A DNA stretch of 33,531 nucleotides, filler included, from Candidatus Delongbacteria bacterium (GCA_016937995.1; 2 parts of 2 records of this genome joined end to end with filler, not necessarily neighbours in it), one strand, 5' to 3'. Positions 1,795 through 26,599 are shown, counted from the first letter of the whole stretch. Notes: generated by a model from the sequence alone, not told the origin. Made by a program: numbers and translations.

Positions 1795-1806
1795 ATTTTG
1801 TTCCTT

Positions 1807-3207
1807 TTATTTCTCATTCTGTATCTCTTCTATTATCCGTTCTATCTTTTTCAATCTTTCTTTCAGCTCTTCGTTTTCGTGCCTTAGTTCTTTTATCGCT
1901 TGAATCGCTATTACACTTAAACCTGCATAATCCATAGTATATATTTCACTTTCTTCATTGTACTGAACAAATTCAGGGAACAGTTTTTCGACTTCCTGAG
2001 CTATAAGTCCGGTGTGTTTAATATCTTTATCTCCCTGTGATATAAAGTTGTATCTCTTTGGCTGAAGTAACATGACCTTGTCAAGAATGTTTGCAAGATC
2101 CTCTATGTTCTTCTTAAATCTTATGTCCGAAATTGAAGAATACACACCTGTAGCATAATTAAATGTTCCCCTCTGATCCGAACCGTGAAAAAGATAGAGA
2201 TTATGTGTTGTGGAGTGGTATAAATGCCAGTCACTCGTTGCGCTGGTATTTTTTATAAACAGACCGTTATCCACTCCTGAAGGATGCCAGGCATATGTAT
2301 AATTTGAATTGAATTTCAAAGTATTAGTATCGAATTCACCATAGATCAATGGTGAAGATGTGTCTGAATTATCAATATAAAGCCTGTTTGACCCCAATTC
2401 ATTATGTCCAGAATAATATCCAATAAACACATTTCCAGAGCCAGTTTCATTCTGATATCCGGATCTTGAACCGATGTATACATTCTGATCTCCGTTACAT
2501 TGAACACCTGCAAAATAACCGAAAAGGCAACTGTTCGAACCTGAACTGTTCATTGAACCTGCATTCTGTCCAAAAAAGGAGTTATAGCTTCCATCATTAG
2601 AGTAGCCACTTGAGTAACCGAAAAAAGCGTTTTGATCACCTGTAGAAGAAAATCCGGCGGAACATCCCACATAAGTATTTGTGGCTGCTGTAGTGTTACT
2701 TTTACCTGCATCGAGCCCTATGAAAACGTTAGCACTACCGCTAATGTTTGAATATCCTGAATTTGCACCTACAAAGACATTTGACCATCCTTCAGAATCA
2801 TTAAGTCCTGCATCATTACCTACAAATACGTTCTGCATACCTTCATTTTGAGATCCAGCGTTCAAACCAAGGAAAATATTCTCCGGGCTAAAATTAGCAT
2901 ATTCACCCGAACTGCTTCCCATAGTATTTTTTTTCGAAGTTACCTCTAATGCTTTTGCCCCTTTTGAGGCAGATGTTGTTACACTGAATGATCTGGACAA
3001 TCCTCTATCTTTACTGTTACTGAGGTTCGCTTTAATTTCAGACGCACTGATCACCATAAGTGTATCACCCATATTAAACACTCTTAACCCGTCATCTGAT
3101 ATCGAAAATACAGGTTCACCACTATTATCCAGTATCTCAAAAAGTGTTTCAGCATTTAAGGTGAATAAGGTTATCAGCAAACTAAGGATTATATATGTCT
3201 TTTTCAT
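1807..3207 (-). CDS. Secreted tail-fibre-like protein with C-terminal peptidase S74 intramolecular chaperone
   Basis: ORF 1807..3228, start moved to ATG 3207 (MKKTY, GAGG upstream). Same N-domain and repeats; SDIRFKKNI...GLIAQEVEKLFPE...MDY...IQAIKEL is the S74 signature. Confidence 0.85.
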   Translation of the reverse strand: MKKTYIILSLLITLFTLNAETLFEILDNSGEPVFSISDDGLRVFNMGDTLMVISASEIKANLSNSKDRGLSRSFSVTTSASKGAKALEVTSKKNTMGSSSGEYANFSPENIFLGLNAGSQNEGMQNVFVGNDAGLNDSEGWSNVFVGANSGYSNISGSANVFIGLDAGKSNTTAATNTYVGCSAGFSSTGDQNAFFGYSSGYSNDGSYNSFFGQNAGSMNSSGSNSCLFGYFAGVQCNGDQNVYIGSRSGYQNETGSGNVFIGYYSGHNELGSNRLYIDNSDTSSPLIYGEFDTNTLKFNSNYTYAWHPSGVDNGLFIKNTSATSDWHLYHSTTHNLYLFHGSDQRGTFNYATGVYSSISDIRFKKNIEDLANILDKVMLLQPKRYNFISQGDKDIKHTGLIAQEVEKLFPEFVQYNEESEIYTMDYAGLSVIAIQAIKELRHENEELKERLKKIERIIEEIQNEK

Positions 3208-3239
3208 AATCGATCGTACCTCAAACAATTCAATTTTCT

Positions 3240-4910
3240 TTAATTTGATAATTTCGACTTAAGCATTTCTAATTTTTCAATTCTGTCATTCTGTATTTTC
3301 ATTTCTTTTTTCATTAACTCGATCTCTTCTTTTTGATCTTGAATAGCCTTGATCAAAATCGGTGTTAATTCAGAATAATTAAGCCCTAAAGTGTGTTCTT
3401 CATCTTCGCCCACATCAACAATTTCAGGTACTATCTCAAGTAATTCCTGAGCAATTAACCCAACTTTGCGTCCACGTTCAGGTTTGTCTTTCCAAAAGTA
3501 TGTAACAGGTCTCATTTTTAAGACCGTGTTTAAACCATACTCAATATCCTTAATATCAGACTTCTGTCTTTTATCCGAAGTTTGAATTACTCCATTTGTT
3601 GCGAATACATCATCCCAGCGTAATGTTGATGCACCAAGATCAAAAACATTATCCGATATTGGTCGTAGAAAACCGCTAGATAAGTAGGGAATCCCTCCAG
3701 AAGTATTATAGGATAAATACATTAAAGGCCCATAAGAGATTGCATTACCTTCTGCCCACCATTCAAGTCTGTTTAAACCTCCATCGTATTTCATTGACAT
3801 ATTATAAGTTCCGTCATTATCTTCAGCTAGAACTATTTCAGCATCATCACCACTTGTTGCTTCTGATGGGGCGATCATTAAAGAACCAAGAGTAGGACTT
3901 CCAACTACATTAAGCTCACCATTTATAGTAACAAAATCATTATCAAACTCTCCATATATCAATGGAGTCGAACTATCTGAATTTTCGATGTATAATTTAT
4001 TAGAACCTGTTTCATTACTACCTGAAGAATATCCAAGACATATATTTCCTTCACCTGCAATATTCCTACCACTATTTGCTCCGATCAACACATTGTTATT
4101 GTTATCAAATCCGGTCATATAAAGACCGCTAAAAGCACCTAAGCATACATTATCGTTGCCATATGGGCTTGTGTAACCTGATCTATGTCCAATATAAATA
4201 TTCGAATGCCCTTCAATGTTATTATATCCCGACTCTTTTCCGATCATTATGTTAGTAGTTCCAACAACATTTTCATAACCTGCAAGATTCCCAAGGAATA
4301 CATTAGCGGATCCACCCCAGTTATTTTCTCCGGACGAATTTCCTAAAAATACATTATCAATTCCACTCATACCATTAACGACATTAACTTTACCTGTGTT
4401 TAAACCCAAAAAAACATTCTCCGGGCTAAAGTCTGAATAATGTTCTCCAACCGCACCCTCTCTCATTTTCGTTTCATCAGAGTTAACTTCTAATACATCG
4501 GTCTCCAACTTCCCAGCACCTGTGGAAGTAACGTTAAATGAGTATGAAGTGTCAATGTAGGCTGTAATATTCCCGGTCGTAATGTCCATCAGATTTGTGT
4601 TATCACTATAAACTCTTAAACCGTCACCAGCTATATTTACAACATCACCCTGACCTTTAGAAGCTGAAGTTGTTACACTGAATGATCTAGATAATCCTCT
4701 ATCTTTGCTATTCTCAATAAAAGCTTTTATCTCAGATGAACTTATCACCATCAGAGTATCTCCCTGATTAAATACTCTAAGACCATCCGTGGTTACCTCA
4801 AGTACGGTGTAATTACTTTCATCTTTTATTTCAAATAGAGGTGTCGCTTTCACTTGTATAGAAAACAAGATAACGACTAAAATAAAAACAATATGTTTTT
4901 GGTATATCAT
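3240..4910 (-). CDS. Secreted tail-fibre-like protein with duplicated N-domain and C-terminal peptidase S74 chaperone
   Basis: 556-aa ORF, GAGGAGG RBS, signal peptide, repeats and TSDKRQKSDI...GLIAQEL...LNYSELTPILIKAIQD. Confidence 0.85.
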   Translation of the reverse strand: MIYQKHIVFILVVILFSIQVKATPLFEIKDESNYTVLEVTTDGLRVFNQGDTLMVISSSEIKAFIENSKDRGLSRSFSVTTSASKGQGDVVNIAGDGLRVYSDNTNLMDITTGNITAYIDTSYSFNVTSTGAGKLETDVLEVNSDETKMREGAVGEHYSDFSPENVFLGLNTGKVNVVNGMSGIDNVFLGNSSGENNWGGSANVFLGNLAGYENVVGTTNIMIGKESGYNNIEGHSNIYIGHRSGYTSPYGNDNVCLGAFSGLYMTGFDNNNNVLIGANSGRNIAGEGNICLGYSSGSNETGSNKLYIENSDSSTPLIYGEFDNDFVTINGELNVVGSPTLGSLMIAPSEATSGDDAEIVLAEDNDGTYNMSMKYDGGLNRLEWWAEGNAISYGPLMYLSYNTSGGIPYLSSGFLRPISDNVFDLGASTLRWDDVFATNGVIQTSDKRQKSDIKDIEYGLNTVLKMRPVTYFWKDKPERGRKVGLIAQELLEIVPEIVDVGEDEEHTLGLNYSELTPILIKAIQDQKEEIELMKKEMKIQNDRIEKLEMLKSKLSN

Positions 4911-13822: not shown

Positions 13823-13922
13823 NNNNNNNNNNNNNNNNNNNNNNNNNNNNNNNNNNNNNNNNNNNNTTAATTAATTAANNNNNNNNNNNNNNNNNNNNNN
13901 NNNNNNNNNNNNNNNNNNNNNN
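13823..13922. other. Artificial contig-joining linker (44 N, TTAATTAATTAA, 44 N)
   Basis: Exactly 100 positions with a six-frame stop 12-mer in the middle. Confidence 0.97.
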
Positions 13923-13923
13923 G

Positions 13924-14349
13924 CTTGTTGCTATTGATAGAGGAACTAACGGTCTATTAGATCCTAGACCTCAGTCAGCTACTGCTACTACAGATTACTA
14001 CAGTATAACACCTGACGGATTCTTTGAAACAGCAAACTATATCGGAGCTTTTGCACCTGCAAGCAAATCAGGACTTTGGACTGACGGATGGACTTATCTT
14101 GATCAATTCGGATATACTGCAGATGTCGTTGTTGCCGATGCACCTTCTAATGTTTCAACTTCATTATCTGGAACAAATCTGACTGTTAGCTGGGATTCAG
14201 TTCCTGGAGCAGTATCATACAGTGTTTATTCATGTGATACTCCTAACGGTACATTTACACTTGAAACAACAGTTGGAACAAATCAGTGGACAGCAACTGC
14301 TACTGATTCCAAGAAATTCTATTATATAAAAACAAATACTGCTAAATAA
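13924..14349 (+). CDS. C-terminal part of a probably secreted protein ending in an FN3/Ig-like module (5' truncated)
   Basis: Not in the ORF track. 141 open codons: LVAIDRGTNGLLDPRPQ...DGFFETANYIGAFAP...WTDGWTYL...APSNVSTSLSGTNLTVSWDSVPGAVSYSVYSCDTPNGTF...KKFYYIKTNTAK*. Confidence 0.85.
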   Translation, partial: LVAIDRGTNGLLDPRPQSATATTDYYSITPDGFFETANYIGAFAPASKSGLWTDGWTYLDQFGYTADVVVADAPSNVSTSLSGTNLTVSWDSVPGAVSYSVYSCDTPNGTFTLETTVGTNQWTATATDSKKFYYIKTNTAK

Positions 14350-14483
14350 AAAATGAAAAAGGAGGCAAGTATAAGAAATTTGTAATCCTATTTTGAACTA
14401 TCAAGTTAGATCAGGTAATCGTTCATTGAAAACAATTAAGCCTGTTAAACTGAATTCACCGCCTGATAGAACTTGTAAAGATA

Positions 14484-14511
14484 AAAAATCCCGGAATAAT
14501 CCGGGATTTTT
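14484..14511. terminator. Bidirectional Rho-independent terminator
   Basis: Perfect hairpin AAAAATCCCGGA-ataa-TCCGGGATTTTT between convergent genes. Confidence 0.85.
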
Positions 14512-14914
14512 ATTTATCGTTATTTATCTTGCGGGGTCTAAGCTGACATGCGCAACCACCTGTGAGTTCGTTGTTCTTATCAATTTTAATGGGCATTCCG
14601 TCACTTTCCCAATCACTTATCCCCCCAATAAGCGAAAAGATATTATCATATCCTTTCTCTGTCAGAATTCTTACAGCTTCTTTGCTCTTGATACCAACAT
14701 AGTCAGCAACGATCACTGTTTTGTTTTTGGGGATAAAGCTTTGATCTTCTTTAAGATCATCCAGTTTGATATTGATAACTACAGGAACGTCAAAATCTCG
14801 ACCATTCCTGAAAATACCTTCTCTTAAATCTATAAGCAAAGCTCCTTCATTGAGAAGCTTGATCGAACCCCTTGGAGAAATAAATTTTATCCCATTTATA
14901 TTATATATAGAAAT
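14510..14914 (-). CDS. Rhodanese-like domain protein (start uncertain)
   Basis: Frame is open to 14932: ...KFISPRGSIKLLNEGALLIDLRE...ADYVGIKSKEAVRILTEKGYDNIFSLIGGISDW; C-terminal GGCACQL. No in-frame ATG upstream; ATT at 14914 follows AGGGG. Confidence 0.7.
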   Translation of the reverse strand: MSIYNINGIKFISPRGSIKLLNEGALLIDLREGIFRNGRDFDVPVVINIKLDDLKEDQSFIPKNKTVIVADYVGIKSKEAVRILTEKGYDNIFSLIGGISDWESDGMPIKIDKNNELTGGCACQLRPRKINNDK

Positions 14915-14981
14915 AAGAATCCCCTGCTTTTTTCATAATATTAATCACAGAGGATCTAAAATACAATATGTTTTATCATAT

Positions 14982-15638
14982 TTATTTTACAATAGCAGAT
15001 TTGATAACCGACATAGCTTTATCTTTATTCCCGAAACCTTCTGACTTCAATTCTCCCGGTCCTTTATAATTTGTGAACCACAGTTCTATTATATCAAGTA
15101 TTCCGGTGAAATTATTATTCAATTCTGAAATATCATTTATCTGTGAAAAATGTGAATCTTTTATAACAGCTATTAGCTTATCATCCTTCTCCCCTCCATC
15201 AAGAAGATACATCACACCTATTATCTTTACTCTTAATACTTTACCTCTTTCTATTGCAGGTCCAAGAATTATCACATCCAGTGGATCACCGTCTCCTCCT
15301 TTCTCTTTTGAAAGCAAAGTCCCCGGTATCATACCATAGTTTGCAGGATAACCAAGATATTTCACTTTTCTTGGTTTTCCTTTTTTAAATTCCCATTTGA
15401 GTTTTCCGTCACTTTTATCAACTTCCCATTTCCCTATTGTACCCGCCGGGATCTCAATTATAGCATTAACCTCACTGTTAAAAAGTTCTGTTTTTACTTC
15501 ATTGTAATTTATTTTTGACGCAAAAATATATGGATCTGAATCCATCTCATAATTTGAAATATCAGGCATTTTAGCATAAATTAACATGACCAGTGTTAAC
15601 AACGCAAGTGTCCTAAAAAAAAGATGATATTTGTTCAT
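14982..15638 (-). CDS. ppa: Family I inorganic pyrophosphatase with N-terminal signal peptide
   Basis: IEIPAG, YPANYGMIPGTL, GDGDPLDV, DDKLI; hydrophobic N-terminus ending LIYA. Confidence 0.9.
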   Translation of the reverse strand: MNKYHLFFRTLALLTLVMLIYAKMPDISNYEMDSDPYIFASKINYNEVKTELFNSEVNAIIEIPAGTIGKWEVDKSDGKLKWEFKKGKPRKVKYLGYPANYGMIPGTLLSKEKGGDGDPLDVIILGPAIERGKVLRVKIIGVMYLLDGGEKDDKLIAVIKDSHFSQINDISELNNNFTGILDIIELWFTNYKGPGELKSEGFGNKDKAMSVIKSAIVK

Positions 15639-15639
15639 T

Positions 15640-16287
15640 TTATTTTTCCTTCTTTAAATACATACTCATAAGAACTCCAAGTACTGCACCTATTACAGGT
15701 CCTGCAAAATAGATCCATAGATGTTCAAAATTCATTGTAGCTATGGCTGGTCCGAAAGATCTGGCAGGATTCATAGAAGCACCAGTAACAGGTCCTGCGA
15801 ACATGGCTTCAAGACATACTGTAGCACCGATAGCAACTCCAGCCATCATACCTTTTTCCTTGGCACCTGTCGCTACATGGTAAATCACGAACATAAGAAA
15901 GAATGTAAGCAGTAATTCGAAAATAAATGCCGGGAACACATCTATGGATGGTAAGGTCATACCTAAATACTCATCTTTGGGAAAAACAGACCTTAAAAAC
16001 AAACTAGCTGCTGAAGCACCTGCAAGCTGTACAATTATATAACTAACCGTATCTTTAAGAGAGATCTTCTTTGATGCATAGAATGCTATTGTTACAGCAG
16101 GATTTATATGTGCTCCGGAGATATCCCCGATAGCATATATCATTGCCATAACTATGAGACCGAATGTTATTGCTATCCCTGAGTGTGTTACAGCACCGTT
16201 TGAAAAATTATTAATAACGACTGCACCTGTACCTGCAAATACAAGTGCAAAAGTCCCTATAAATTCTGCAAGATACTTTTTATTCAT
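15640..16287 (-). CDS. MIP-family channel, NIP/AqpN-like (probable arsenite channel)
   Basis: AEFIGT, SGAHINPAVT, GASMNPARSFGP; start ATG 16287 (GTG 16293 is the alternative). Confidence 0.9.
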   Translation of the reverse strand: MNKKYLAEFIGTFALVFAGTGAVVINNFSNGAVTHSGIAITFGLIVMAMIYAIGDISGAHINPAVTIAFYASKKISLKDTVSYIIVQLAGASAASLFLRSVFPKDEYLGMTLPSIDVFPAFIFELLLTFFLMFVIYHVATGAKEKGMMAGVAIGATVCLEAMFAGPVTGASMNPARSFGPAIATMNFEHLWIYFAGPVIGAVLGVLMSMYLKKEK

Positions 16288-16332
16288 TTCCACCTCTAAT
16301 TTTTATCTAAGATTAGGAATTTAATAAATGAC

Positions 16333-16371
16333 TGTTATACTAATATTTTATTTTTGTTAGATTTTTGTTAC
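16333..16371 (-). promoter_or_regulatory. Pho-box-like array upstream of aquaporin-ppa
   Basis: + strand TGTTAT(16333), TATTTT(16344), TGTTAG(16355), TGTTAC(16366) at an 11-bp period; TAAATT -10 lies 9 bp downstream on the - strand. Confidence 0.75.
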
Positions 16372-16428
16372 AAACGGCATATAAACTTCTCAAAAGCTCA
16401 TTATTTGACCTTTTGATTGTTTAAATTT

Positions 16429-16456
16429 AAGTAAGAAGTAAGAAATTAGATGTCAG
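16429..16456 (+). repeat. Heptamer tandem repeat, left arm flanking the four-helix-bundle gene
   Basis: AAGTAAG AAGTAAG AAATTAG ATGTCAG; inverted match (26/28) to 16824-16851. Confidence 0.8.
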
Positions 16457-16464
16457 AGGAAAAC

Positions 16465-16820
16465 ATGGAAACAAATCTTTGAAATAGAACATTTAATTTT
16501 TCAATAAATATTCTAGATCTTGTTGAATCAATTCCTAAATCAACAACATCTAATGTAGTCAGATACCAACTATCTAGAAGCGGAACTTCGGTTGGGGCAA
16601 ATTATAGAGTTTCAAGAAGAGCAAGAAGTGACAGAGAATTTATTTCAAAGATCAGTATCGTGTAGAAGAAATTGATGAATCTCTGTTCTGGTTAGAAATA
16701 CTCGAATATAAAAGCTGGATCGACGATCCAGCTTTATATGATTTGCTTAAAGAAGCAAATGAATTAACATCAATTTTTGTTTCTATCCTTAAGAAAGTAA
16801 AGAAGCGCATTAATTCATAA
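16465..16820 (+). pseudogene. Four helix bundle protein (23S rRNA IVP-like) pseudogene
   Basis: METNL*NRTFNFSINILDLVESIP...QLSRSGTSVGANYRVSRRARSDREFISKISIV/VEEIDESLFWLEIL...EANELTSIF. TGA at 16480 and a 1-bp frameshift near 16661; GAGGA RBS. Confidence 0.88.
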
Positions 16821-16823
16821 CTT

Positions 16824-16858
16824 CTGACTTCTAATTTCTTACATCTTACTTCTGACTT
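16824..16858 (+). repeat. Heptamer tandem repeat, right (inverted) arm
   Basis: CTGACTT CTAATTT CTTACAT CTTACTT CTGACTT, abutting the arsC stop codon. Confidence 0.8.
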
Positions 16859-17279
16859 ACAACTCCTTCACAAACTCATCGATCCAGTTTTTTATCTGAT
16901 CTCTTACTTTTCTGGTAAAATCAAGCTTTTCTTCATAAGATCCCTGAAAAGCAGAAGGATCAGGAAATTCTTTATGAAGTCTTTTGTATACATTACCTGG
17001 GAATACAGGACATCTTTCACCTGATGCCTGATCACATACTGTAACCACATAATCGTAATGATCTCCGGAATCGATCTTTTCCTGTACAGTATTTGTAGAA
17101 TTTCCTGAGATATCTATCCCGATCTCTTTCATTGCATCAACTACAACTGGATTAAGCTTCCCTTTCTCAATACCAGCACTTTCAGCTTTCACATTTTCAA
17201 GCCCTGCATTATTAACAAATGCTTCCGCCATCTGACTTCTTGCTGAATTATGTATGCAAACGAATAAAACTTTAGTCAT
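16857..17279 (-). CDS. arsC: Arsenate reductase, LMW-PTPase (thioredoxin-coupled) type
   Basis: VLFVCIHNSARSQMAEA P-loop, VTVCD...CPVFPG, PDPS, R.VRDQI; start ATG 17279 after GAGGAG. Confidence 0.9.
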   Translation of the reverse strand: MTKVLFVCIHNSARSQMAEAFVNNAGLENVKAESAGIEKGKLNPVVVDAMKEIGIDISGNSTNTVQEKIDSGDHYDYVVTVCDQASGERCPVFPGNVYKRLHKEFPDPSAFQGSYEEKLDFTRKVRDQIKNWIDEFVKEL

Positions 17280-17326
17280 GATCTCCTCATTCGATTTTTT
17301 CAATACACCATAAAGATAATAAATAA

Positions 17327-17346
17327 TGTTACAAAAATATTATATT
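17327..17346 (-). promoter_or_regulatory. Pho-box-like site upstream of arsC
   Basis: TGTTACAAAAATATTATATT is identical (20/20) to 25570-25589 upstream of phoB; TATCTT -10 lies 8 bp downstream on the - strand. Confidence 0.7.
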
Positions 17347-17413
17347 TCTCTCATAAAGGCACCCATTCACAAAGGTTAAATTTGAATTTTCCGATTCCTA
17401 TCTTGTAAATTTT

Positions 17414-17537
17414 CAGGCTTTTCAAAAACGAGTTATACAAGGAAAAGTACTATTTTTAAAATGTAGCTTAGTTAACCTAAGTCACATTGCAGAAAATTGT
17501 ACTTCGACGCCGAAGAATGAAGTTTTTCAAAAGCCTG
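17414..17537. mobile_element. 124-bp MITE-like element with 16-bp terminal inverted repeats and internal palindrome
   Basis: CAGGCTTTTCAAAAAC ... GTTTTTCAAAAGCCTG (15/16 inverted). Internal AAGTAC...GTACTT and ATGTAGCTTAG...CTAAGTCACAT stems. Abuts the pstA TAG. Confidence 0.6.
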
Positions 17538-18407
17538 CTACCAATCGCGATTTTTTCTGATCCTATATCTAAAATAAACCGACGCAGAACTCACTATTAT
17601 TACAAATGCAAGCAGAACAAGTGCAGTTCCGTAAGCGATCGGAACCTGCTTATCAGGATGAGATCCTTCTGTCATCAGTGCATAAATATGATATGGTAGA
17701 GCCATGACCTCATCAGAAAGTGAATTAGGAAGCCTTCTGCTGTAGAACGTTGCTGCAGTAAACAATATAGGAGCAGTTTCTCCTGCGACCCTTCCGATTG
17801 CAAGTATTACTCCCGTCAGAATATTCGGTAAAGCTGCAGGTAAAAGCACCTTAAGAATAGTCTGTCTTTCTGATGCACCGAGCGAAAGTGAAGCATCTCT
17901 GAACTCTGGAGGGATTGTTTTAAGGGCTTCTTCTGTATTATTTATAATAATTGGTAGTATCAGAACAGCAAGTGTCAGAGATCCACTGATAATTGATACA
18001 TCAAACTCAAAATATATAACAAATACTGCCATTCCGAACAGACCGTAAATGATTGATGGAATAGCTGCAAGTGTACTTATAGTAACCCTGAGTGATTTTA
18101 CAAACCAGTAAGGTCTTGCATAACTTGTAAGATATACTGCTGTAAATACTCCGAATGGCAATGCTATCAGTACCGAAATAAGTGTAAGCCAGAGTGTTCC
18201 TACAATTGCAGGGAATATACCACCTTCTGTCATGAACTTTCTCGGCATCTCAGATACAAATTCCCAGGATATAACTCCGTAACCTTTTGATACAATTATA
18301 TATATGAAAATGAAAAGAAAAATACCCGTAGTAAAAGTAAGCAGATTAAGTGTTGATACACCCAGGAACTGCTTTAATGATCTCATATTAATAGTTTTAA
18401 GACTCAT
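17538..18407 (-). CDS. pstA: Phosphate ABC transporter permease PstA
   Basis: GGIFPAIVGT, LAAIPSIIYGLFG, GRVAGETAP. Confidence 0.95.
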   Translation of the reverse strand: MSLKTINMRSLKQFLGVSTLNLLTFTTGIFLFIFIYIIVSKGYGVISWEFVSEMPRKFMTEGGIFPAIVGTLWLTLISVLIALPFGVFTAVYLTSYARPYWFVKSLRVTISTLAAIPSIIYGLFGMAVFVIYFEFDVSIISGSLTLAVLILPIIINNTEEALKTIPPEFRDASLSLGASERQTILKVLLPAALPNILTGVILAIGRVAGETAPILFTAATFYSRRLPNSLSDEVMALPYHIYALMTEGSHPDKQVPIAYGTALVLLAFVIIVSSASVYFRYRIRKNRDW

Positions 18408-19273
18408 ATTTTTTTCTTCCTGAAGAATACAAGTTCAGTTATAATATTACTGAAGAAAGTTATAAAAAATAATATTATCGCTATAGCAAACAGAGAACTG
18501 TAATGATCACTGCCGACCACTGTCTCACCCATTTCTGCTGCGATAGCTGCTGTCATAGGTCTTACCGGTGAAAATATACTTTTCGGTATCTGAGCTGATC
18601 CTCCTGCCACCATAAGAACTACCAGGGTTTCACCTATCGCTCTACCAAATGCAAGAATAAACGATCCGATAATACCGCTTTTTGCTGCCGGGATAATGAC
18701 CTTGTATATCGTTTCGAATTTATTTGCTCCTAAACTCAATGATGCATCTCTTAGATTTTGCGGTACGGCATTCAAGGCATCTTCGCTCATTGTTGATATT
18801 ATTGGAATAACCATAATACCGAGTATTAATGATGCAGAGAACATATTCAGACCTATCGGTGCTCCAAAAGTATCCATTACAAATGGAGAAAGAAAGACTA
18901 TACCTACCAATCCATAAATAACAGATGGAATTCCGGCAAGAAGTTCAATGATCGGTTTAATAATTTCTTTTGTTCTTCTTCCTGCCAGTTCAGAGATATA
19001 GATCGCAGAACCCAGTCCTAAAGGAATAGCCACAACAAGTGTACCAATCGTTACGTAGATAGAAGATACTATCAGAGTCCACATTCCAAAAATAGGCGGA
19101 TCATCAACAGGTCTCCATTCCATACCGAATAAAGTGGAAAAGATACCGACCTTTTTTAAGATCGGTATCCCTTCAGTGAATATACTCAGGATTATTCCTA
19201 CAAGTGCTGCGATAGTAAAAAAAGCTGCACCGTATGTTATACCTGAAAATAGTTTATCATAGAATTTTTTCAT
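18404..19273 (-). CDS. pstC: Phosphate ABC transporter permease PstC
   Basis: KPIIELLAGIPSVIYG, SEDAL, GRAIGET. Confidence 0.95.
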   Translation of the reverse strand: MKKFYDKLFSGITYGAAFFTIAALVGIILSIFTEGIPILKKVGIFSTLFGMEWRPVDDPPIFGMWTLIVSSIYVTIGTLVVAIPLGLGSAIYISELAGRRTKEIIKPIIELLAGIPSVIYGLVGIVFLSPFVMDTFGAPIGLNMFSASLILGIMVIPIISTMSEDALNAVPQNLRDASLSLGANKFETIYKVIIPAAKSGIIGSFILAFGRAIGETLVVLMVAGGSAQIPKSIFSPVRPMTAAIAAEMGETVVGSDHYSSLFAIAIILFFITFFSNIITELVFFRKKKI

Positions 19274-19277
19274 TGGA

Positions 19278-20087
19278 TTATTTACTTACTTTTACAAATC
19301 CCATTTCTTCTACAATTGCCTGTCCCTTAGGTGAAAGAACGAAATCAATATACTTTTTTACTTTACCTTCCGGCTTACCTTTTGTGTACATGTGAAGTGT
19401 CCTTGCGATAGGATAAGTTCTATCCTGGATAGTTTTTTCTGATACTGTTATTCCGTTGATCCTTACATCATTAACATTATCGGAAAGGTAACCTATACCT
19501 ACATAACCAACTGCACCTTTTGTATCTTTTACAGTAGTTGCTACTGCATTATTTGAAGCAAGCATGAGTGAACTAGCTGCCAGCTTTTCCTTCTTAAGGA
19601 CTTTTGTCTCGAAGGTTTCATAAGTACCTGAAGAAACGTCTCTTGATACAAGAACTATAGGCATAGAAGGTCCGCCTACTTCTTTCCAGTTCATTATCTC
19701 ACCTGTATAGATCTTCTGAAGCTGATCGATTGTAAGATCTTTTACCGGATTTGATTTGTGAACTATAACAGCTATACCATCATTAGCTACTACATTCTCA
19801 TAAGCTTCTACACCATTCTGTTTAGCTTGAAGAAGTTCTTTGTTCTTGATGTGCCTTGAAGCATTACCTATGTCACAAGTTCCTGCTATAATTCCTGCTA
19901 CACCAACACCTGATCCACCACCTCTTACTGAGATATTCATGTCAGGATTCATTTCCATGAAAGCTTCAGCAGTTGCCTGAGCTATAGGAAGTACAGTTGT
20001 TGAACCGACCATTGTGATCTGATCACCTTTCTTAGCGAAAGCAACCATTGCTGCGATCATCATGATTACGAATAATAATTTTTTCAT
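19278..20087 (-). CDS. pstS: Phosphate ABC transporter substrate-binding protein PstS
   Basis: GSTTVLP, GGGSGVG, DIGNASR, R...SGT, YPIARTL; signal peptide. Confidence 0.95.
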   Translation of the reverse strand: MKKLLFVIMMIAAMVAFAKKGDQITMVGSTTVLPIAQATAEAFMEMNPDMNISVRGGGSGVGVAGIIAGTCDIGNASRHIKNKELLQAKQNGVEAYENVVANDGIAVIVHKSNPVKDLTIDQLQKIYTGEIMNWKEVGGPSMPIVLVSRDVSSGTYETFETKVLKKEKLAASSLMLASNNAVATTVKDTKGAVGYVGIGYLSDNVNDVRINGITVSEKTIQDRTYPIARTLHMYTKGKPEGKVKKYIDFVLSPKGQAIVEEMGFVKVSK

Positions 20088-20141
20088 TTTTTACTCCTAA
20101 TAAGTGTTTTGTTCTTTAACGTGTGTAATTTGCTATTTTAA

Positions 20142-20180
20142 TGTTTGAGAAATAATAAGGATTTGTTAGAATTGTATTAG
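20142..20180 (-). promoter_or_regulatory. Pho-box-like array upstream of pstS
   Basis: TGTTTG(20142), TAATAA(20153), TGTTAG(20164), TATTAG(20175) at an 11-bp period; CAAATT -10 lies 9 bp downstream on the - strand. Confidence 0.75.
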
Positions 20181-20185
20181 AAATA

Positions 20186-20265
20186 GGGTCTTGAGATGTG
20201 GGTCTCGGGTCTCGGGTTGCAAATCCAATCATAACCCAAGACTCAAGACTCGAGACTCACAACCG
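20186..20265. repeat. Inverted heptamer-repeat hairpin (GGGTCTC-like x5 / AAGACTC-like x5)
   Basis: GGGTCTT GAGATGT GGGTCTC GGGTCTC GGGTTGC, 10-nt spacer, ATAACCC AAGACTC AAGACTC GAGACTC ACAACCG. Confidence 0.75.
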
Positions 20266-20267
20266 TT

Positions 20268-21326
20268 CTATGAACCCAGCACTTCTGAAAAAATCCATCT
20301 CATCTGAAGCATGATCTGATTTACCGGATCTTTGTCACTGTCTTCATACATTGTTGTTTCATAGTTTAGCTGGAAGAACAGAGTAGGATTGTTCTTTGAA
20401 TCTCTTACAACATTATAATTAAGACCTACGACCAGGACATTATAAGCATCATCATCATTATCGGTATTTGGATCGTACATATCATATCTTCCTATAACAT
20501 CAAATGAATTATTGATCTTGTATTTAGGCATAAATGACATAACAGTAGTATTAATATCATCCGCTCCGTCAACATTAGGAAGTGATTTAGTTTTCATCAG
20601 ATACTGCCCAAGTAAACTAAAATCTCCAAATGCCAGTTTTCCCATTCCTGCGAACATGTTGTATTGCTCTCTTGCTGGATTGTCTACCAGTGGTCCATTA
20701 CCAGCTAAAGTAGTATCAACTTCTGCATTGTTCTTTGTCATGAAATAATATGAACCACCCAGAGTAACACCTACCATTGGAGTAATTCTTACATCTGCTG
20801 CGAAATTAAGATCTTTGTTAATGTCACTACCTGTTTTCTTGTATCCTTCACCATTATAAGCAGCAAAATTATATGTACCGAATCCGCTTGGGAAATATCC
20901 ACTGATACCGATACCGTAGTCGGTTGAGCTTACGAATTTGTACTTGTCAGACGGGTCTTTTTCTATTACCTGATAATCCCAGTCATAGATCGTTCCGAAG
21001 TATGTCTTCATCAGACCGATGGTCAGTTTTGAGTCAGTTATAGGTAACACAGCAAAATCAAGATAAGCATACTTAAGTTTCATACCTACACCGTCAGCTG
21101 CTCCGTCATCAGAAAAGAAATCAAGGTTGAATCTACCTTTGATGTTCGAACTGAATTGAGGTTCCAGCCTGAAATAACCTCTTTTTACTGCAAGTTCATT
21201 CTCAACGATATCACCATCGACCGTTTCCATTGTCCATCTGTTCCAAAGTTCCATTTTGAACTTTGTTGATGCGTTCAGTCCTGCCACTGCAAGAACTATT
21301 AATGCAAATACCAATGTTTTTTTCAC
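20268..21326 (-). CDS. Outer-membrane beta-barrel porin, probably phosphate-related (OprO/P-like)
   Basis: Signal peptide (GTG 21326 after GGAGG); VKRGYF, LKYAYL, YNGEGY, GRYDMYDPNT and amphipathic strands; located between phoU and pstS. Confidence 0.75.
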   Translation of the reverse strand: MKKTLVFALIVLAVAGLNASTKFKMELWNRWTMETVDGDIVENELAVKRGYFRLEPQFSSNIKGRFNLDFFSDDGAADGVGMKLKYAYLDFAVLPITDSKLTIGLMKTYFGTIYDWDYQVIEKDPSDKYKFVSSTDYGIGISGYFPSGFGTYNFAAYNGEGYKKTGSDINKDLNFAADVRITPMVGVTLGGSYYFMTKNNAEVDTTLAGNGPLVDNPAREQYNMFAGMGKLAFGDFSLLGQYLMKTKSLPNVDGADDINTTVMSFMPKYKINNSFDVIGRYDMYDPNTDNDDDAYNVLVVGLNYNVVRDSKNNPTLFFQLNYETTMYEDSDKDPVNQIMLQMRWIFSEVLGS

Positions 21327-21381
21327 ACTATCCTCCATTTGAGTGTTTAATTTTGTTTACGTGTGAAATTTGCTATATGAA

Positions 21382-21420
21382 TGTTTGGAGAATAATAAGG
21401 AAGTGTTAAAATTAAGTTAG
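21382..21420 (-). promoter_or_regulatory. Pho-box-like array upstream of the porin
   Basis: TGTTTG(21382), TAATAA(21393), TGTTAA(21404), AGTTAG(21415); colinear with the pstS promoter. Confidence 0.75.
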
Positions 21421-21458
21421 AATTTAGAAGTCAGAGGATAGAAGTAAAAATATTCCAC

Positions 21459-21488
21459 CTGGATTCCCGGATCAAGTCCGAGAATGAC
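21459..21488. repeat. REP-like palindrome CTGGATTCCCGGATCAAGTCCGAGAATGAC
   Basis: Imperfect hairpin ending TGAC, resembling the widespread GTCA-type small repeats. Confidence 0.6.
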
Positions 21489-21524
21489 AGTTTAACTCAA
21501 GACTCTAGACCCACAACCCAAAAT

Positions 21525-21547
21525 AAAAAAGGGTGCCTAAACACCCC
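21525..21547 (-). terminator. Probable terminator of phoB-phoR-pstB-phoU
   Basis: - strand GGGTG-tttagg-CACCC followed by TTTTTT. Confidence 0.55.
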
Positions 21548-21553
21548 ACGCAG

Positions 21554-21588
21554 TAGCTCATAGTTCATCGCTTATAGTTCATAGTTAG
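21554..21588. repeat. Heptamer tandem repeat (TAGTTCA-like x5)
   Basis: TAGCTCA TAGTTCA TCGCTTA TAGTTCA TAGTTAG. Confidence 0.7.
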
Positions 21589-21592
21589 AAAA

Positions 21593-21616
21593 GTCTTCGA
21601 CTCCGTTCAGACTGAC
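21593..21616. repeat. REP-like element GTCTTCGACTCCGTTCAGACTGAC
   Basis: Resembles the CTTCGAC-x-x-x-GCTCAG-x-x-TGAC small repeat type; located right after the phoU stop. Confidence 0.5.
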
Positions 21617-21620
21617 TTTT

Positions 21621-22274
21621 CTATTCAGCGTGCCTAACAATCGTCCCCTCGATCATATATATCACATCTTCCGAAATATTAGTCGCATGATCAGCTATCC
21701 TTTCCAAATATCTCGATACAGAAAGATAGTTCAAATAAAGCTTCATCTTATGAGGATCTTTTGAAACCTGTTCAACAAAAATATCATACATTCTGCTGTT
21801 CATATCATCTATCTCATTATCTGTATCAATAACAGCCTGAGCTTTCTGCATATCAAGATCAACAAGAGAATCTATACTGTCGTTAAGCATTTTTAAAGAT
21901 AGATTACACATACCATTAAAATCAAAATCAGGTATTTCACCTTCAAGATTTACTAATGCCTTCGCTCTTTGAGCAATATTTTGAGCAAGATCACCCACCC
22001 TTTCAAGATCAGAATTTATCTTTAATATAGATACAATCAGTCTAAGATCAGTCGCAACCGGTTGATACAAAGCAAGCATTTTTAGACAATCTTCTTCAAT
22101 TTCGATCTCGAAACGATCGATCTGATCATCTTTTTCAATAACTTTATCTGCGGTATCACCGTCCTTGTTCAAAAGAGCTTTGATAGCAAATCTCAGGCTT
22201 TCTTCCACAACAGTACATTGACTGAATATTTTTTTCTTAAGCTTTCTAAGTTCATTCTGTAAATAAATCGACAT
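21621..22274 (-). CDS. phoU: Phosphate signalling protein PhoU
   Basis: QPVATDLR, DLERVGDLA, LERIADHATNI. Confidence 0.96.
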   Translation of the reverse strand: MSIYLQNELRKLKKKIFSQCTVVEESLRFAIKALLNKDGDTADKVIEKDDQIDRFEIEIEEDCLKMLALYQPVATDLRLIVSILKINSDLERVGDLAQNIAQRAKALVNLEGEIPDFDFNGMCNLSLKMLNDSIDSLVDLDMQKAQAVIDTDNEIDDMNSRMYDIFVEQVSKDPHKMKLYLNYLSVSRYLERIADHATNISEDVIYMIEGTIVRHAE

Positions 22275-22282
22275 TTTATCTC

Positions 22283-23044
22283 CTATCCGAATTTTCCGGT
22301 TATATATTCTTCTGTTTTCTGCATATCAGGTTTTGTAAATATCTTCTTAGTATCACCAAATTCGATAAGCTCACCCTCGTAGAAAAAAGCTGTCTTATCT
22401 GAAACTCTGGCAGCCTGTTGCATATTATGCGTAACAATAACAATCGTATAATTTCCTTTAAGCTCACCGATAAGATCTTCTATCCTTGCAGTTGATTTAG
22501 GATCCAGTGCTGAAGCAGGTTCATCCATAAGAAGTATCTCAGGATCCACAGCCAGCGCTCTTGCAATACAAAGTCTCTGCTGCTGACCACCTGAAAGTCC
22601 CATGGCACTTTTATTAAGCCTGTCCTTTACTTCATCCCAAAGTCCCGCATTCTTTAAGCTTTTTTCAACGACCATATCAAGGTCTTTTCTTGCTGTAGAA
22701 CCGTGAATTCTTGGACCATATGCTATATTCTCATATATGGATTTAGGGAAAGGAGTTGATTTCTGAAATATCATACCTACTCTCTTTCTTAAAGTCACAA
22801 CATCAGTGCTCTTATTATAAATATTTACTCCATCTATCTCTACAATTCCTTTGACGACAGTTCCGAATATAGTATCATTCATCCTGTTAAGTGTTCTTAG
22901 ATATGTTGACTTTCCGCATCCGGAAGGTCCGATCAATGCAGTTACAAGACCTTTAGGTATATTCATATTAATGTCGAATAATGCCTGATTATCTCCATAA
23001 AAAAAGTCAAGCTTTTCACTTCTGATCTTAATTTCTTCTTCCAT
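22283..23044 (-). CDS. pstB: Phosphate ABC transporter ATPase PstB
   Basis: [43 protein letters not shown]. Confidence 0.97.
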
Positions 23045-24837
23045 TAATTCTCCACCTTTATGTTATTTGGAATTACAAGTGTGAATTTTGAACCCAGTCC
23101 GGGTTTACTTTCCACATCAATTCTTCCGTTATGTAAATTCATTATATGTTTTACTATTGAAAGTCCAAGACCGGTTCCGCCTTCTTTCCTGCTTCTTGCT
23201 TTGTCTACCCTGTAGAACCTTTCGAACAGTCTTGGAAAGTGTGATTCATCTATCCCCATTCCGTAATCTCTAACAGATATATAACTGTATTGAGCATCTG
23301 TATTACATTCAAGTTCGATCAGCTTTTTAGAATTACAGTATTTTATTGCATTGTCTATAAGATTTATCAATGCTTCTTCTATAAGCTGTTGGTTACAATA
23401 TATCTTTTTTACGCAGTTGTTCTTCACTTTTAGATCGATCTGATCCTTCTCCAGTGTTGAAGAGAAGATATCTCTGCTGTTTCTCATTATCTCAATCGGC
23501 AATGCATCTTTGAATTCTATCGTTGCTCCATTTTCCTCATCTTTATCAAGTTTGGAAAGTGTCAGCAGATCCTGAATTATCGTACTCAACCTTTCTGCGT
23601 GGTTAAAAATGATCTTAAGAAATTTTTTCCTGTGTTCTTTATCATCATCTGCACCTTCAAGCAGTGTTTCAACAAATCCTTTTATTGAGGTCAGAGGTGT
23701 TCTTAGCTCATGAGAAACATTGGCAACGAAATCTTTCCTTATTATCTCTGCCTGCTTCAATGCGGTTATATCATGCATAACAAAAACAGCACCTCTATTA
23801 TTATCCTCATGATCTTTAATTGTCGTTCCCTGAAGTCTATAAATAAATTCATTCCCGTAACTATCTGGAATAACCACTGTCCTCTTTACTTCTGAATCGG
23901 AATCAGTTACTTCATCAACAAATCTCTGGATAGTACTGTTCCTTACTGCCTGATGCAGCAGTCTGTTATGTGCATATTTCGGATCAATATTCAAAAATTT
24001 AGCTGCAGCTGAATTCACCAGTATAATATTCCCTTCCTGATCAATTGCAATAACACCTTCGACCATTGATTCAAGAATGGCATTCTGCTCATTCTTCTGA
24101 CTTGTAAGATTCTTTATCTTTTCATCCAGTTGAACTGCCATAGATTTCATGGACAGAGCGAGTTTCTGTGTCTCTTCGTTATTATATGAACCAGGTTTGA
24201 CTGAAAAATCACCTGCAGAATACATATCAGACAGTTCTGTAAGTTCCATAAGTGGATTACTGAACCTTCTGGACAGATAAAAACTCGCAGCTATTAAAAT
24301 TATAAGCACCAATATCCCCAAAGTTCCGAGACTATTTGAGAATCTTGAAATTGTGTCTGTGAATTTCATTAGAGGAAATGATGTTCTTATAACATATTGT
24401 TCTTTCCCGTGATAGAAGACCGGGATCGCAACATACATTAAATTCTGTTTGAGAGTTGCACTCCGTCTGATTATCGTACCCAGTTCACCCTGCATTGCTA
24501 TCATTATTTCAGGTCTGTCACCATGATAGTCCATATATTGGGGATCACTTCTGCTGTCTCCGATAACTTCACCGTTAGCTCTTATTACAGTATATCTTGT
24601 ATTAGTTTCTTTCCCTACATTTTTAACAATAGAGTCAGTAATAGCAATTGTCAAGGTATCCAGACTGAGTAAATTACTTTTAAGAAGTAAAGCCTGCTCT
24701 TCAAGTCTGATATGAATATTTTCGGAATAACTTTCTTCATATTTATTGACTGCAAAAATAAAAACTGACAGAGAAGCCAGAACTGTCACTATTAAAAATG
24801 AAGGAAATATACTCCAGAAATAAGGCTTATTTTTCAT
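23044..24837 (-). CDS. phoR: Phosphate regulon sensor histidine kinase (HAMP-PAS-HisKA-HATPase)
   Basis: [54 protein letters not shown]. Confidence 0.93.
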
Positions 24838-25523
24838 TTCCTGTCCTTAAACCTGTAACCGATACCTCTGATAGTTTCAACATATTTACTTGCACTTTTC
24901 AGTTTTTTTCTCAGACCGACCATCATTACATCAACACTCCTGTCTGTAACAGGATAATTATTCCCGTGAACATTCTCTACTATCTGGTATCTTGTGAACA
25001 CCCATCCAGGTTTTGACGCAAGAAAATGTAAAGCCTTGAACTCTGAAGCTGTCAGATCTATCTTTTCACCGTTGACAGTTACCTCATATCTCCCGGGAAC
25101 TATTTTAAGTTCATGAACATTAATATCTTCTCTATTGATCTCTTCTACCTGCTCTTTTCTTCTCAGGATCGTTCTAATTCTTGCAACGAGTACTTTTGGG
25201 CTGAAAGGTTTTACGATATAATCATCTGCCCCGAGCTCAAGACCGGTGATAATGTCGGATTCTTCACCCTTTGCAGTGATCATTACAACAGGGATATCTT
25301 CAGTTGATTCATTTCTTTTTAGTTTCTTACAAATTGTTAACCCATCGTCACCGGGCAACATGATATCAAGTAGGATAATATCACACTTTTCACTACTCAG
25401 AACCTCGAACATATCTTCACCGCTATCGAATTCTTTTACAAGATAATTGTTCTTCTTCAAGTTGTACGATATAAGTTCTCTGATATCCTCGTCATCTTCT
25501 ACAATAAATACTTTTTTGTTCAT
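24834..25523 (-). CDS. phoB: Phosphate regulon OmpR-family response regulator (PhoB/PhoP)
   Basis: Receiver domain (EDD, LDIMLPG, GADDYIVKPFS) plus winged helix (ETIRGIGYRF); overlaps the phoR start. Confidence 0.9.
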   Translation of the reverse strand: MNKKVFIVEDDEDIRELISYNLKKNNYLVKEFDSGEDMFEVLSSEKCDIILLDIMLPGDDGLTICKKLKRNESTEDIPVVMITAKGEESDIITGLELGADDYIVKPFSPKVLVARIRTILRRKEQVEEINREDINVHELKIVPGRYEVTVNGEKIDLTASEFKALHFLASKPGWVFTRYQIVENVHGNNYPVTDRSVDVMMVGLRKKLKSASKYVETIRGIGYRFKDRK

Positions 25524-25569
25524 AATTTTACCGTTTGGTTATAATTACATTCCAAATATAGTATGATTT

Positions 25570-25608
25570 TGTTACAAAAATATTATATTATTGTTAGAAT
25601 ATTGTTAG
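25570..25608 (-). promoter_or_regulatory. Pho-box-like autoregulatory array upstream of phoB
   Basis: TGTTAC(25570), TATTAT(25581), TGTTAG(25592), TGTTAG(25603); TATATT -10 lies 9 bp downstream on the - strand. Confidence 0.8.
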
Positions 25609-25735
25609 AATGACAGACAGATCCGGGAACGTTTCTCTTACAAAGAAACAAAGGTCATTGAGATAATAATATTTTACAATTATATGTTATCCATAAACCT
25701 TGATAATAAAATTATTTTTCTTTATAATTACATTT

Positions 25736-26599
25736 ATGAATAGAAGACATTTTGCAAAAATGATAAGGGATGAATTCCCTGATATTGATCTTACCATTTC
25801 CAGATTTATCACTCACGGCTGGGACCATTTTGTACTGATCTCAAAGGATAAAAAGGTTTTAAGGATACCCAAGGACAACAGATACAGATTTAAATTCGGA
25901 AACGAAATAAAGCTTTTAAAATATCTTAAGAACAAAGTATCTGTTGGGATACCCTACTATAAATATATATCTTCTACAGGTGAATTTGCCGGATATGATA
26001 TGCTTATAGGTAAAGATCTGACTGCTGATACTTTCAAAAAACTCTCAAGAAAGGACAAAGAGCTTCTCGCTGAACAGCTTGGAGAATTTTTGACCGGACT
26101 GCATAACATTCCTGTTGCAAAAATAGGATCAATGTGTGTTGAAACAGTTGACAACCTGAAGCAATTTAAAAATCTTGAAAACAATATAAAACAATATCTG
26201 CATTCTAAATTATCAGATAATGAAATAAAACTGATAAACTCATATATGGTCACTCTGAAAGAAACATTCGCTCATAATTACACTAAAGTCCTTGTTCATA
26301 ATGATCTTAGTGGAGAGCATATTCTTTGGGACAGGAAAAACTTCAAGGTAAATATCATTGATTTCAGTGACAGAGAAATAGGTGATCCTGCGATGGATTT
26401 TACAGGTTTCTTTGAATTCGGAGAAGAATTCGCTCAACAGGTTTATTCTTTTTACAAAGGCAGAAAAGATGTTTCTTTTCTTTACAGGGCAAAATTATAT
26501 TTTAAAAGAGTTCCTCTATACATTATGATAGATTCACAACAGGGATTCCCGTGTACTTTTGATGAAGGATATGAAATGTTCAAAAAATTATATAAATAG
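25736..26599 (+). CDS. Aminoglycoside phosphotransferase (APH/choline kinase) family protein
   Basis: HGWD, VLRIP, LVHNDLSGEHIL, IIDFSD...GDPAMDF; start likely ATG 25736. Confidence 0.85.
   Translation: MNRRHFAKMIRDEFPDIDLTISRFITHGWDHFVLISKDKKVLRIPKDNRYRFKFGNEIKLLKYLKNKVSVGIPYYKYISSTGEFAGYDMLIGKDLTADTFKKLSRKDKELLAEQLGEFLTGLHNIPVAKIGSMCVETVDNLKQFKNLENNIKQYLHSKLSDNEIKLINSYMVTLKETFAHNYTKVLVHNDLSGEHILWDRKNFKVNIIDFSDREIGDPAMDFTGFFEFGEEFAQQVYSFYKGRKDVSFLYRAKLYFKRVPLYIMIDSQQGFPCTFDEGYEMFKKLYK

Follow-up and report, generated by a model that had tools for sequence, protein, structure and literature searches.

Our bioinformatics analyses of a 33,531-nucleotide stretch of Candidatus Delongbacteria DNA (GCA_016937995.1; hereafter the window) concern an arsenate reductase gene (arsC) and an aquaporin-pyrophosphatase-rhodanese operon that lie directly behind the high-affinity phosphate uptake genes (pst), and they lean, slightly beyond an even balance, toward a circuit in which phosphate starvation would switch on a putative arsenite channel through a full-size Pho box and the arsenate reductase through a half-size one, with no arsenic sensor needed. 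The genome (coded G000; 2.75 Mb, 97% complete) carries this locus on its contig C99, and the relatives used for comparison, whose proteins NCBI labels as Ca. Delongbacteria, are genomes coded G001 onward.

Results

A four-unit TAACA array as the predicted Pho box

To avoid circularity, the scoring model was built only from 14 phoB and pstS promoters of 8 relatives and was then applied to 1,164 upstream regions of the genome, taken from our own crude open reading frame (ORF) calls. All 14 training promoters share an anchor of xAACA, 9 bases, and nAnATT, with further units upstream in 11-bp phase, the third of them degenerate; because the promoters were aligned on this anchor, the -10 element is not an independent result. 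Four promoters of the window carry the array:

25570..25613, minus strand: Pho box of phoB (units TAACA, TAACA, TAATA, TAACA), predicted -10 TATATT at 25555-25560
21382..21425, minus strand: Pho box of the porin gene (TAACT, TAACA, TATTA, AAACA), predicted -10 CAAATT at 21367-21372
20142..20185, minus strand: Pho box of pstS (TAATA, TAACA, TATTA, AAACA), predicted -10 CAAATT at 20127-20132
16333..16376, minus strand: Pho box of the aquaporin operon (TAACA, TAACA, AAATA, TAACA), predicted -10 TAAATT at 16318-16323

These took ranks 1-4 of the 1,164 regions (phoB 39.8, aquaporin 34.3, pstS 31.2, and porin 29.3 bits, the next region scoring 14.9), and for each promoter 0 of 2000 shuffles reached the real score. 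The aquaporin and porin promoters are true held-out tests, being absent from training, and orthologs of phoB and pstS are in the training set. In all four, the second unit from the promoter is AT-degenerate (TAATA at phoB, TATTA at porin and pstS, AAATA at the aquaporin) and an nAnATT hexamer lies 9 bp downstream of the box; the layout of the phoB box is the same at phoB of 8 relatives.

A first-pass annotation, made from the window alone, had placed a shared phased array before five genes, and its positions proved exact (promoter-proximal half-sites ending at 25570, 21382, 20142, 16333, and 17327, minus strand). The phased array that it described, with a degenerate second half-site and a -10 at 8-9 bp, is present in four units at phoB, porin, pstS, and the aquaporin, always with 9 bp, whereas the fifth site, at arsC, has two units, one of them perfect, and 8 bp. 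Its suggestion that these sites define a Pho box for a poorly studied lineage is well supported by the relatives-only model, which puts phoB, aquaporin, pstS, and porin first in the genome-wide scan. As to enrichment over background, the full array stands out from its shuffles, but the bare TAACA-N6-TAACA pair does not (16 occurrences genome-wide against 20 for the reversed control), so that pairs alone carry no weight. We consider the TAACA array, as predicted from promoters, to be well supported as the Pho box of Ca. Delongbacteria, and the aquaporin operon is very probably under Pho control.

Ranks 5-8 of the scan are held by a TonB-dependent receptor gene, a Na/Pi symporter gene with a PhoU-like gene, a PHP-domain hydrolase gene, and a START gene whose homologs are divergent from phoB in G012 and G015. 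Further likely Pho-regulon genes elsewhere in the genome (G000:C44:2399-13189, L327) encode a START protein together with a PHP-glycosyltransferase and an alpha-amylase-family protein, as well as a PHP hydrolase and a TonB-dependent receptor, and the START operon is boxed and divergent from phoB in several relatives. In G008 (L206:1879-3714), a 25-bit Pho box lies upstream of an acyltransferase-GNAT fusion that we take to be a likely ornithine-lipid synthase, which would amount to a phosphorus-free lipid response.

A half-size site before arsC and larger boxes in relatives

The arsC gene and its site are as follows:

16857..17276, minus strand: ArsC, thioredoxin-type arsenate reductase; likely start ATG at 17276 behind GAGGAG, with an in-frame TTG at 17303
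17327..17346, minus strand: two-unit (half-size) Pho box of arsC, predicted -10 TATCTT at 17313-17318, 8 bp downstream

Over 20 nt, the arsC site equals the proximal part of the phoB box, and this 20-mer occurs at just these two places in the genome; beyond arsC, 0 of 2,229 upstream regions share even 18 nt with the phoB promoter. Sharing of a 20-mer was seen in 141 of 676,866 promoter pairs, those listed being mostly dispersed repeats. The 20/20 identity highlighted at first pass is hence real and rare in the genome, but in the nearest relative, G002, where ArsC is 84% identical and arsC does not lie beside pst, the exact match shrinks to TTTTGTAACA. A 25-nt block including the arsC -10 and TTTTGTAACA is invariant in G002, and TTTGTAACA is found in 7 of the 1,164 upstream windows, including those of nptA, the aquaporin, arsC, and phoB.

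Seventeen arsC copies from 14 relatives were scored with a three-unit model against 1,159 background regions. Five copies (G005 twice, G006, G010, G014; the G010 copy is cut by a contig end) have a box of three to four units directly upstream of arsC, scoring above all 1,159 background regions. Four of these are homologous to one another and have arsR and acr3 on their upstream side; in this group 12 of 15 half-site columns are invariant (identity 0.90) against 4 of 15 spacer columns (0.53), and half-sites that are kept while spacers drift are the pattern expected of selection on a binding site. The fifth has another sequence, upstream of a broken arsC between a boxed porin gene and phoB. The arsR promoters of relatives are plain and TTGACA-17-TATATT/TACATT-like, with palindromes of their own, and the four-unit model matched no arsR or acr3 promoter in the fetched relative loci. 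One G005 locus (L064:10500-13570) has a boxed porin gene, a frameshifted acr3, a boxed truncated arsC, and a boxed phoB in a row, that is, a decaying arsR-less ars pair inside a Pho locus.

Several observations weigh against PhoB acting on arsC. The site is without the two distal units and has a spacer of 8 rather than 9 bp; in the four-unit model arsC ranks 431-768 of 1,164, which is background, with 212 of 2000 shuffles reaching its score. With the two best two-unit models it rises to rank 12-13 of 1,164, its two-unit score being reached by 3 of 2000 shuffles, but it stands at rank 484 with the spacer fixed at 9; its two-unit score is matched by ~0.6% of ordinary upstream regions (p 0.006), and several model variants were tried on this site. 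In G002 the arsC site is borderline (p 0.053), and PhoB of the window type was not found in that genome (79% complete); likewise, searches of G006 (91% complete) and G014 (86% complete), both of which have a boxed arsC, found no PhoB. Among the copies of relatives, 12 of 17 are without a box, and the four homologous boxed copies are one origin, not four. Taken alone, the arsC site is suggestive as a PhoB site. Direct control of arsC by PhoB is nevertheless made plausible by the larger boxes that four relatives have ahead of the gene, and we rate it as somewhat probable.

Ties between ArsC and phosphate genes extend beyond the lineage. Among 80 metagenomic ArsC homologs (74 scorable for promoters and 6 too short or unparsed), ArsC adjoins or is fused to pst, phoU, or phoB genes in 7 by raw count (L234, L249, L262, L264, L271, L286, L297), three more loci being uncertain in this respect. 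L264:3930-6504 and L271 each have an arsC-phoB(-phoR) run led by arsC, and L264 has two TAACA units 22 bp apart followed by a -10 at 9 bp; a Delongbacteria-type array was found in 0 of the 74 scorable promoters, which belongs with the unfavorable observations above. L249:3305-4465 encodes a PhoU-ArsC fusion, as do 24 among 120 listed homologs (P0121-P0235), some of them from Elusimicrobia and Edwardsbacteria; each of the 24 retains the catalytic set C10/R16/C82/C89/D105, although this set of fusions is likely biased by the query.

ArsC and the missing ars genes

The ArsC of the window keeps the equivalents of C10, R16, C82, C89, and D105 in an alignment to Bacillus subtilis ArsC (1jl3), with the CX5R loop present; it scores 114.8 bits against TIGR02691, below the cut-off of 174.3, and its gene is the sole LMW-PTP-fold gene found in the genome. 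These residues and the position of its orthologs in arsR-acr3-arsC clusters of relatives argue for arsenate reductase activity. In this 97%-complete genome no TIGR00832 match marks an acr3, a gene present in 10 of 15 relatives and in none of three genomes of this genus; neither an ArsB ortholog nor an ortholog of arsD or arsM was found in the genome. The candidates considered and set aside were a single PF02040 match, which is a CitMHS-type permease far under the ArsB cut-offs; a PF01758 match on C37, an unrelated membrane permease, presumably auxin-efflux-carrier-like, and not Acr3; PF02374 matches that are short, partial ATPase matches; a PF03960 match that has no N-terminal cysteine and is Spx/MgsR-like; and the sole ArsP-family gene, which is of the Cu/Zn efflux type. 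The arsenite oxidase genes aioBA are not among the window ORFs, no genome-wide search for them having been made. The absence of arsR, as first noted, is accurate with respect to the locus itself, and no orthologs of the ArsRs from the relatives' ars clusters were found in the genome, but three ArsR-family genes lie elsewhere in it.

The aquaporin operon

The operon behind the aquaporin box comprises the following features:

15640..16293, minus strand: NIP-like aquaporin with filter F44-A163-A172-R178 (FAAR) and two NPA motifs, the only MIP found in the genome
14982..15638, minus strand: family I inorganic pyrophosphatase, likely exported (PF00719, DGDPLDV motif), starting 1 bp after the aquaporin gene
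14510..14917, minus strand: rhodanese with a C-terminal CACQ motif, its homology reaching further upstream than the first common start codon in frame (14839)
14484..14511: bidirectional terminator-like hairpin ending the operon

By best match the aquaporin is of the NIP-like (AqpN) metalloid channel type, its best structure matches being to NIP2;1 (161 bits vs 123 for the next). Its closest 80 genome homologs are mostly from Bacteroidota, at 58-66% identity; among these, 22 of 25 FAAR homologs lie among ars genes (arsR, arsC, or arsM) as against 0 of 55 WAAR homologs, a split that kinship inflates. The 22 of the 80 that lie among ars genes are thus all FAAR, and the window protein groups with the ars-linked homologs. 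In the 80 homolog loci, no TAACA/TAATA pair was seen upstream of the aquaporin gene. Other aquaporins of the Delongbacteria family are ~40% identical and AqpZ-like, so that this one was likely acquired from outside. In the accessible text of PMC10716587, FAAR is given as a Physcomitrella NIP signature; 10.1101/351064 and PMC8355241 are further aquaporin literature. The FAAR filter, the lack of an acr3 or ArsB ortholog in the genome search, and the ars-operon rhodanese downstream lend moderate support to an arsenic role, and the predicted channel probably serves arsenite.

The N-terminus of the pyrophosphatase is hydrophobic, as it is, by a rough hydropathy rule, in 110 of 120 listed homologs, and no close ortholog of this protein was found in the Delongbacteria family. 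The rhodanese has a single ortholog in the family, 53% identical, inside an arsR-arsP-arsD-arsM-acr3-arsC cluster of G014. Its reading frame is homologous to that of G014 from ~14917, with no in-frame ATG, GTG, or TTG before 14839 and an ATG one base out of frame preceding an A run; this start region (window 14840-14920), which has the same sequence in contigs of two sequencing runs, reflects either a rare start or a frameshift.

Two PhoB-type regulators

The regulatory genes of the window and the remaining uptake genes are listed here:

24834..25523, minus strand: PhoB-type response regulator (TIGR02154 best match)
23044..24837, minus strand: PhoR-type sensor kinase (PnpS and phoR_proteo models, below cut-offs)
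21621..23044, minus strand: pstB and phoU (TIGR00972 and TIGR02135, above cut-off)
21530-21547: terminator-like hairpin after pstB-phoU
20268..21338, minus strand: outer-membrane porin, likely OprO/P-like (Atlas clusters at 0.98, one of which has Porin_O_P annotated on 53% of its members)
17538..20087, minus strand: pstS-pstC-pstA (TIGR02136, TIGR02138, and TIGR00974, above cut-off)

For the window PhoB, TIGR02154 is the best of 101 families at 234.7 bits, under the cut-off of 296.2; the protein has receiver and OmpR winged-helix domains and is encoded with phoR, pstB, and phoU. Its orthologs in 8 relatives are 71-73% identical and adjoin phoR, and this type is the sole OmpR-family regulator found in G005 (99% complete) and in six other relatives, which points to it as the reader of the array. 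A second, Bacteroidota-type PhoB-PhoR pair lies on contig C83 (G000:C83:17883-20583, L328), divergent from the boxed Na/Pi symporter and PhoU-like genes, with PhoB orthologs in G001, G002, G004, and G007. The genome seems to run two Pho systems, of which that of the window was perhaps acquired, its pstS being 79-81% identical to that of another genus.

Setting of the locus

Read along the minus strand, the locus runs as phoB-phoR-pstB-phoU, terminator, porin, pstS-pstC-pstA, an inverted-repeat element, arsC, a broken gene on the opposite strand, and aquaporin-pyrophosphatase-rhodanese with its terminator; two elements complete the list:

17414..17537, strand not assigned: small inverted-repeat element between pstA and arsC, folding as a single long hairpin (z -1.64)
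16450..16820, plus strand: broken four-helix-bundle gene separating arsC from the aquaporin gene (TIGR02436 on the open part), flanked by short tandem repeats

The inverted-repeat element has 4 further copies in the genome at 73-80% and is not among the intrinsic terminators called. The broken gene has an internal stop and a frame change, identical in contigs of two runs of one study. One contig of a public run, which may itself be the source of the window, covers 14000-21487 with one letter different, and a second run of the same study agrees where it covers. At 13823-13922, two N runs flank a 12-base spacer and mark the junction of contigs C93 and C99, the left part belonging to the other contig. 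No Pfam match was obtained for the porin protein and no Rfam family within 14000-26000; a generic sigma-70 scan (46 sites vs 44.5 expected) was uninformative, and an RNA run from the same study gave short, distant pieces only.

Short tandem and dispersed repeats lie between the gene blocks (window 16420-16860, 20185-20265, and 21425-21620), with copies genome-wide and upstream of G002 arsC, and may be rearrangement points. Divergent from phoB lies an aminoglycoside-phosphotransferase-like gene (window 25700-26599), far under all APH cut-offs, and window 223-4910 encodes three paralogous proteins with glycine-rich repeats, two of which have a C-terminal region that is presumably chaperone-like.

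Discussion

From the gene order, sites, residues, and gene absences observed, we infer binding, induction, and transport along the following lines. Low phosphate would activate PhoR-PhoB, as established for the family, and two PhoB dimers would bind four 11-bp units that replace a -35, 9 bp before a weak -10, which is the layout of the 14 relative promoters. The porin and Pst would then import phosphate and, through mimicry, arsenate, an entry route that is itself established; ArsC would reduce As(V) to As(III) by a C10/C82/C89 thioredoxin relay; and As(OH)3 would leave down its gradient through the FAAR aquaporin, standing in for the missing Acr3. The same transcript would also carry the likely exported pyrophosphatase, which would free phosphate. 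Since arsC holds the proximal dimer site only, its induction is likely to be weaker. Arsenate entry occurs mainly while the high-affinity phosphate uptake system is active, so that detoxification tied to PhoB would anticipate the poison. Of the feed-forward circuit without ArsR proposed at first pass, membership of the aquaporin operon in the Pho regulon is retained; the loop in the network-motif sense gives way to anticipatory co-regulation by one regulator, and at arsC the half-size site is weak alone.

The aquaporin box has a main alternative reason, in that it could have been selected for the pyrophosphatase, a natural Pho-regulon gene, with the aquaporin a general water/glycerol channel or a passenger and arsC a leftover under a weak, unregulated promoter. 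The pyrophosphatase gene begins 1 bp after that of the aquaporin and encodes a signal-like N-terminus, the aquaporin is the only MIP found, 58 of its 80 closest homologs have no ars neighbor (55 of the 58 being WAAR, with the FAAR/ars link confounded by kinship), and a passive channel would admit arsenite too; the site at arsC has two units instead of four, bare pairs show no enrichment, and the aquaporin-pyrophosphatase pair was found in no relative. We nevertheless consider this explanation unlikely, because the FAAR filter tracks ars context, the third gene of the operon is the rhodanese of the G014 ars cluster, the search found no further arsenite exporter, four relatives have boxes upstream of arsC, and the TTGTAA-16-TATGGT reading of the arsC promoter is lost in G002, where TAACA-8-TATCTT is kept. 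Much further down the scale, and very improbable, is an ArsR-family repressor encoded elsewhere that would keep arsC and the aquaporin gene arsenic-dependent, alongside or instead of PhoB. About 3% of the genome is missing, and of the three ArsR-family proteins the one on C11 carries two cysteines in helix 3 and matches a Bacteroidota ArsR at 43% identity along 76 residues. The CxC pair of ArsR binds As(III), however, and the C11 protein, whose gene heads dsrE-tusA, shows CNVTQC at the position of CAC or CVC in the relatives' ArsRs, to which it is 28-33% identical; moreover, the operator palindromes of 12 arsR promoters of relatives, sought by alignment and by eye, were not seen in the arsC or aquaporin promoter, and control in trans by such a protein is accordingly unlikely.

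Two other explanations concern arsC itself. Its expression might follow phosphate through read-through from the pstS promoter, the two-unit site being a decayed remnant: pstA ends ~260 bp before arsC, the two genes share a strand, and the terminator scan called no intrinsic terminator in the gap, and runs of pstA-pstB-arsC and phoU-arsC occur in other taxa. The 124-bp hairpin element lies within the pstA-arsC gap, however, and site and -10 are kept in G002, where arsC is not beside pst, which makes this account distinctly improbable. Alternatively, and compatibly with PhoB control of arsC, the site could be read by the Bacteroidota-type PhoB of C83 rather than by that of the window. The proximal arsC unit is of the TGTAACA kind, TG precedes the half-site in 10 of 14 units of C83-type-linked promoters as against TC in 20 of 34 units of window-type promoters, and G002, where the window type was not found, has the C83 type and keeps the site. 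The TG class comes from 4 promoters, however, the window phoB promoter has the same TG unit, and both proteins carry TDR-x-VDVM in the recognition region; either paralog may thus read the arsC site, exclusive reading by the C83 protein being on the unlikely side.

As to how PhoB control of arsC could have come about, the arrangement in relatives suggests that an internal PhoB promoter appeared before arsC within ArsR-controlled clusters; at that first stage, phosphate starvation would turn on reduction, and the arsenite formed would derepress efflux. In this genome, loss of arsR and acr3 would have followed, with arsC retained and a FAAR channel acquired together with a full box of its own. 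Such a stepwise handover from ArsR to PhoB in Delongbacteria is a tentative reconstruction, to which we give somewhat less than even credence. If this reconstruction is true, a Pst-coupled arsenate reductase would be a recurring sensor-free design, since in other phyla both operon position and catalytically intact PhoU-ArsC fusions link the same ArsC clade to Pst. The array would also provide a first usable Pho-box model for Ca. Delongbacteria, predicting a small regulon; the locus and its relatives supply exact sites to mutate and the design of an internal promoter inside ArsR clusters; and arsC abundance or expression in sediments could report phosphate stress, not arsenic exposure.

In our literature search, in which subscription papers were mostly beyond reach, we found no Delongbacteria Pho box, no Pho box or internal Pho promoter before arsC, and no PhoU-ArsC fusion; direct PhoB binding at an arsenic gene was found at aioBA only, and named sites at reductase or efflux genes were scarce. 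In the parts of the sources available to us (PMC11870197, PMC4415409), the B. subtilis PhoP box resembles the present array in its four units, 11-bp period, and xAACA core on the sense strand; it is described as four TT(A/T/C)ACA-like units, with two- to eight-unit sites said to be functional (cited in PMC11870197), whereas the present array belongs to a Gram-negative candidate phylum, has (TC or TG)TAACA as its consensus, and regularly shows a degenerate third unit. In Halomonas HAL1, direct PhoB binding at aioBA is reported from electrophoretic mobility shift assays (PMC4563254), and in arsenic islands pst and ars genes cluster (PMC3834237); as far as the accessible text goes, both differ from the window in involving arsenite oxidation that is As(III)-dependent, with arsR-type operons kept, and no aioBA lies among the window ORFs. 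Induction of arsenic detoxification by phosphate starvation is already published and is not new. According to the accessible part of PMC6426599, arsC of the SAR11 strain Pelagibacter HTCC7211 is up 2.3-fold in P-starved cells and the gene is enriched in low-phosphate water; the likeness extends to an LMW-PTP-fold arsenate reductase (LMWPc_ArsC) paired with an aquaporin and no ArsB or Acr3, the binding site not being given in that part. A review, as available in part (PMC11665274), describes arsB of Crocosphaera watsonii as induced by phosphate limitation, which is similar in linking arsenite efflux to phosphate limitation but relies on an ArsA-ArsB pump that is also arsenate-induced, with no box given there. 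The window differs from SAR11 in its separate arsC and aquaporin promoters, in a channel gene whose transcript also carries a likely exported pyrophosphatase and a rhodanese, and in the position of all these genes directly behind pst. FAAR homologs of the aquaporin lie among arsR-containing ars genes, and AqpS of Sinorhizobium meliloti reportedly lies in an ArsR-led ars operon, whereas the aquaporin of the window has a Pho box and no arsR. AqpS is nonetheless similar, in the accessible text of PMC6426599, in that an aquaporin of NIP-like fold replaces an active exporter beside ArsC. Against these known systems, what appears to be new is the Pho box of this lineage and a traceable, if conjectural, handover of arsenic detoxification from ArsR to PhoB.

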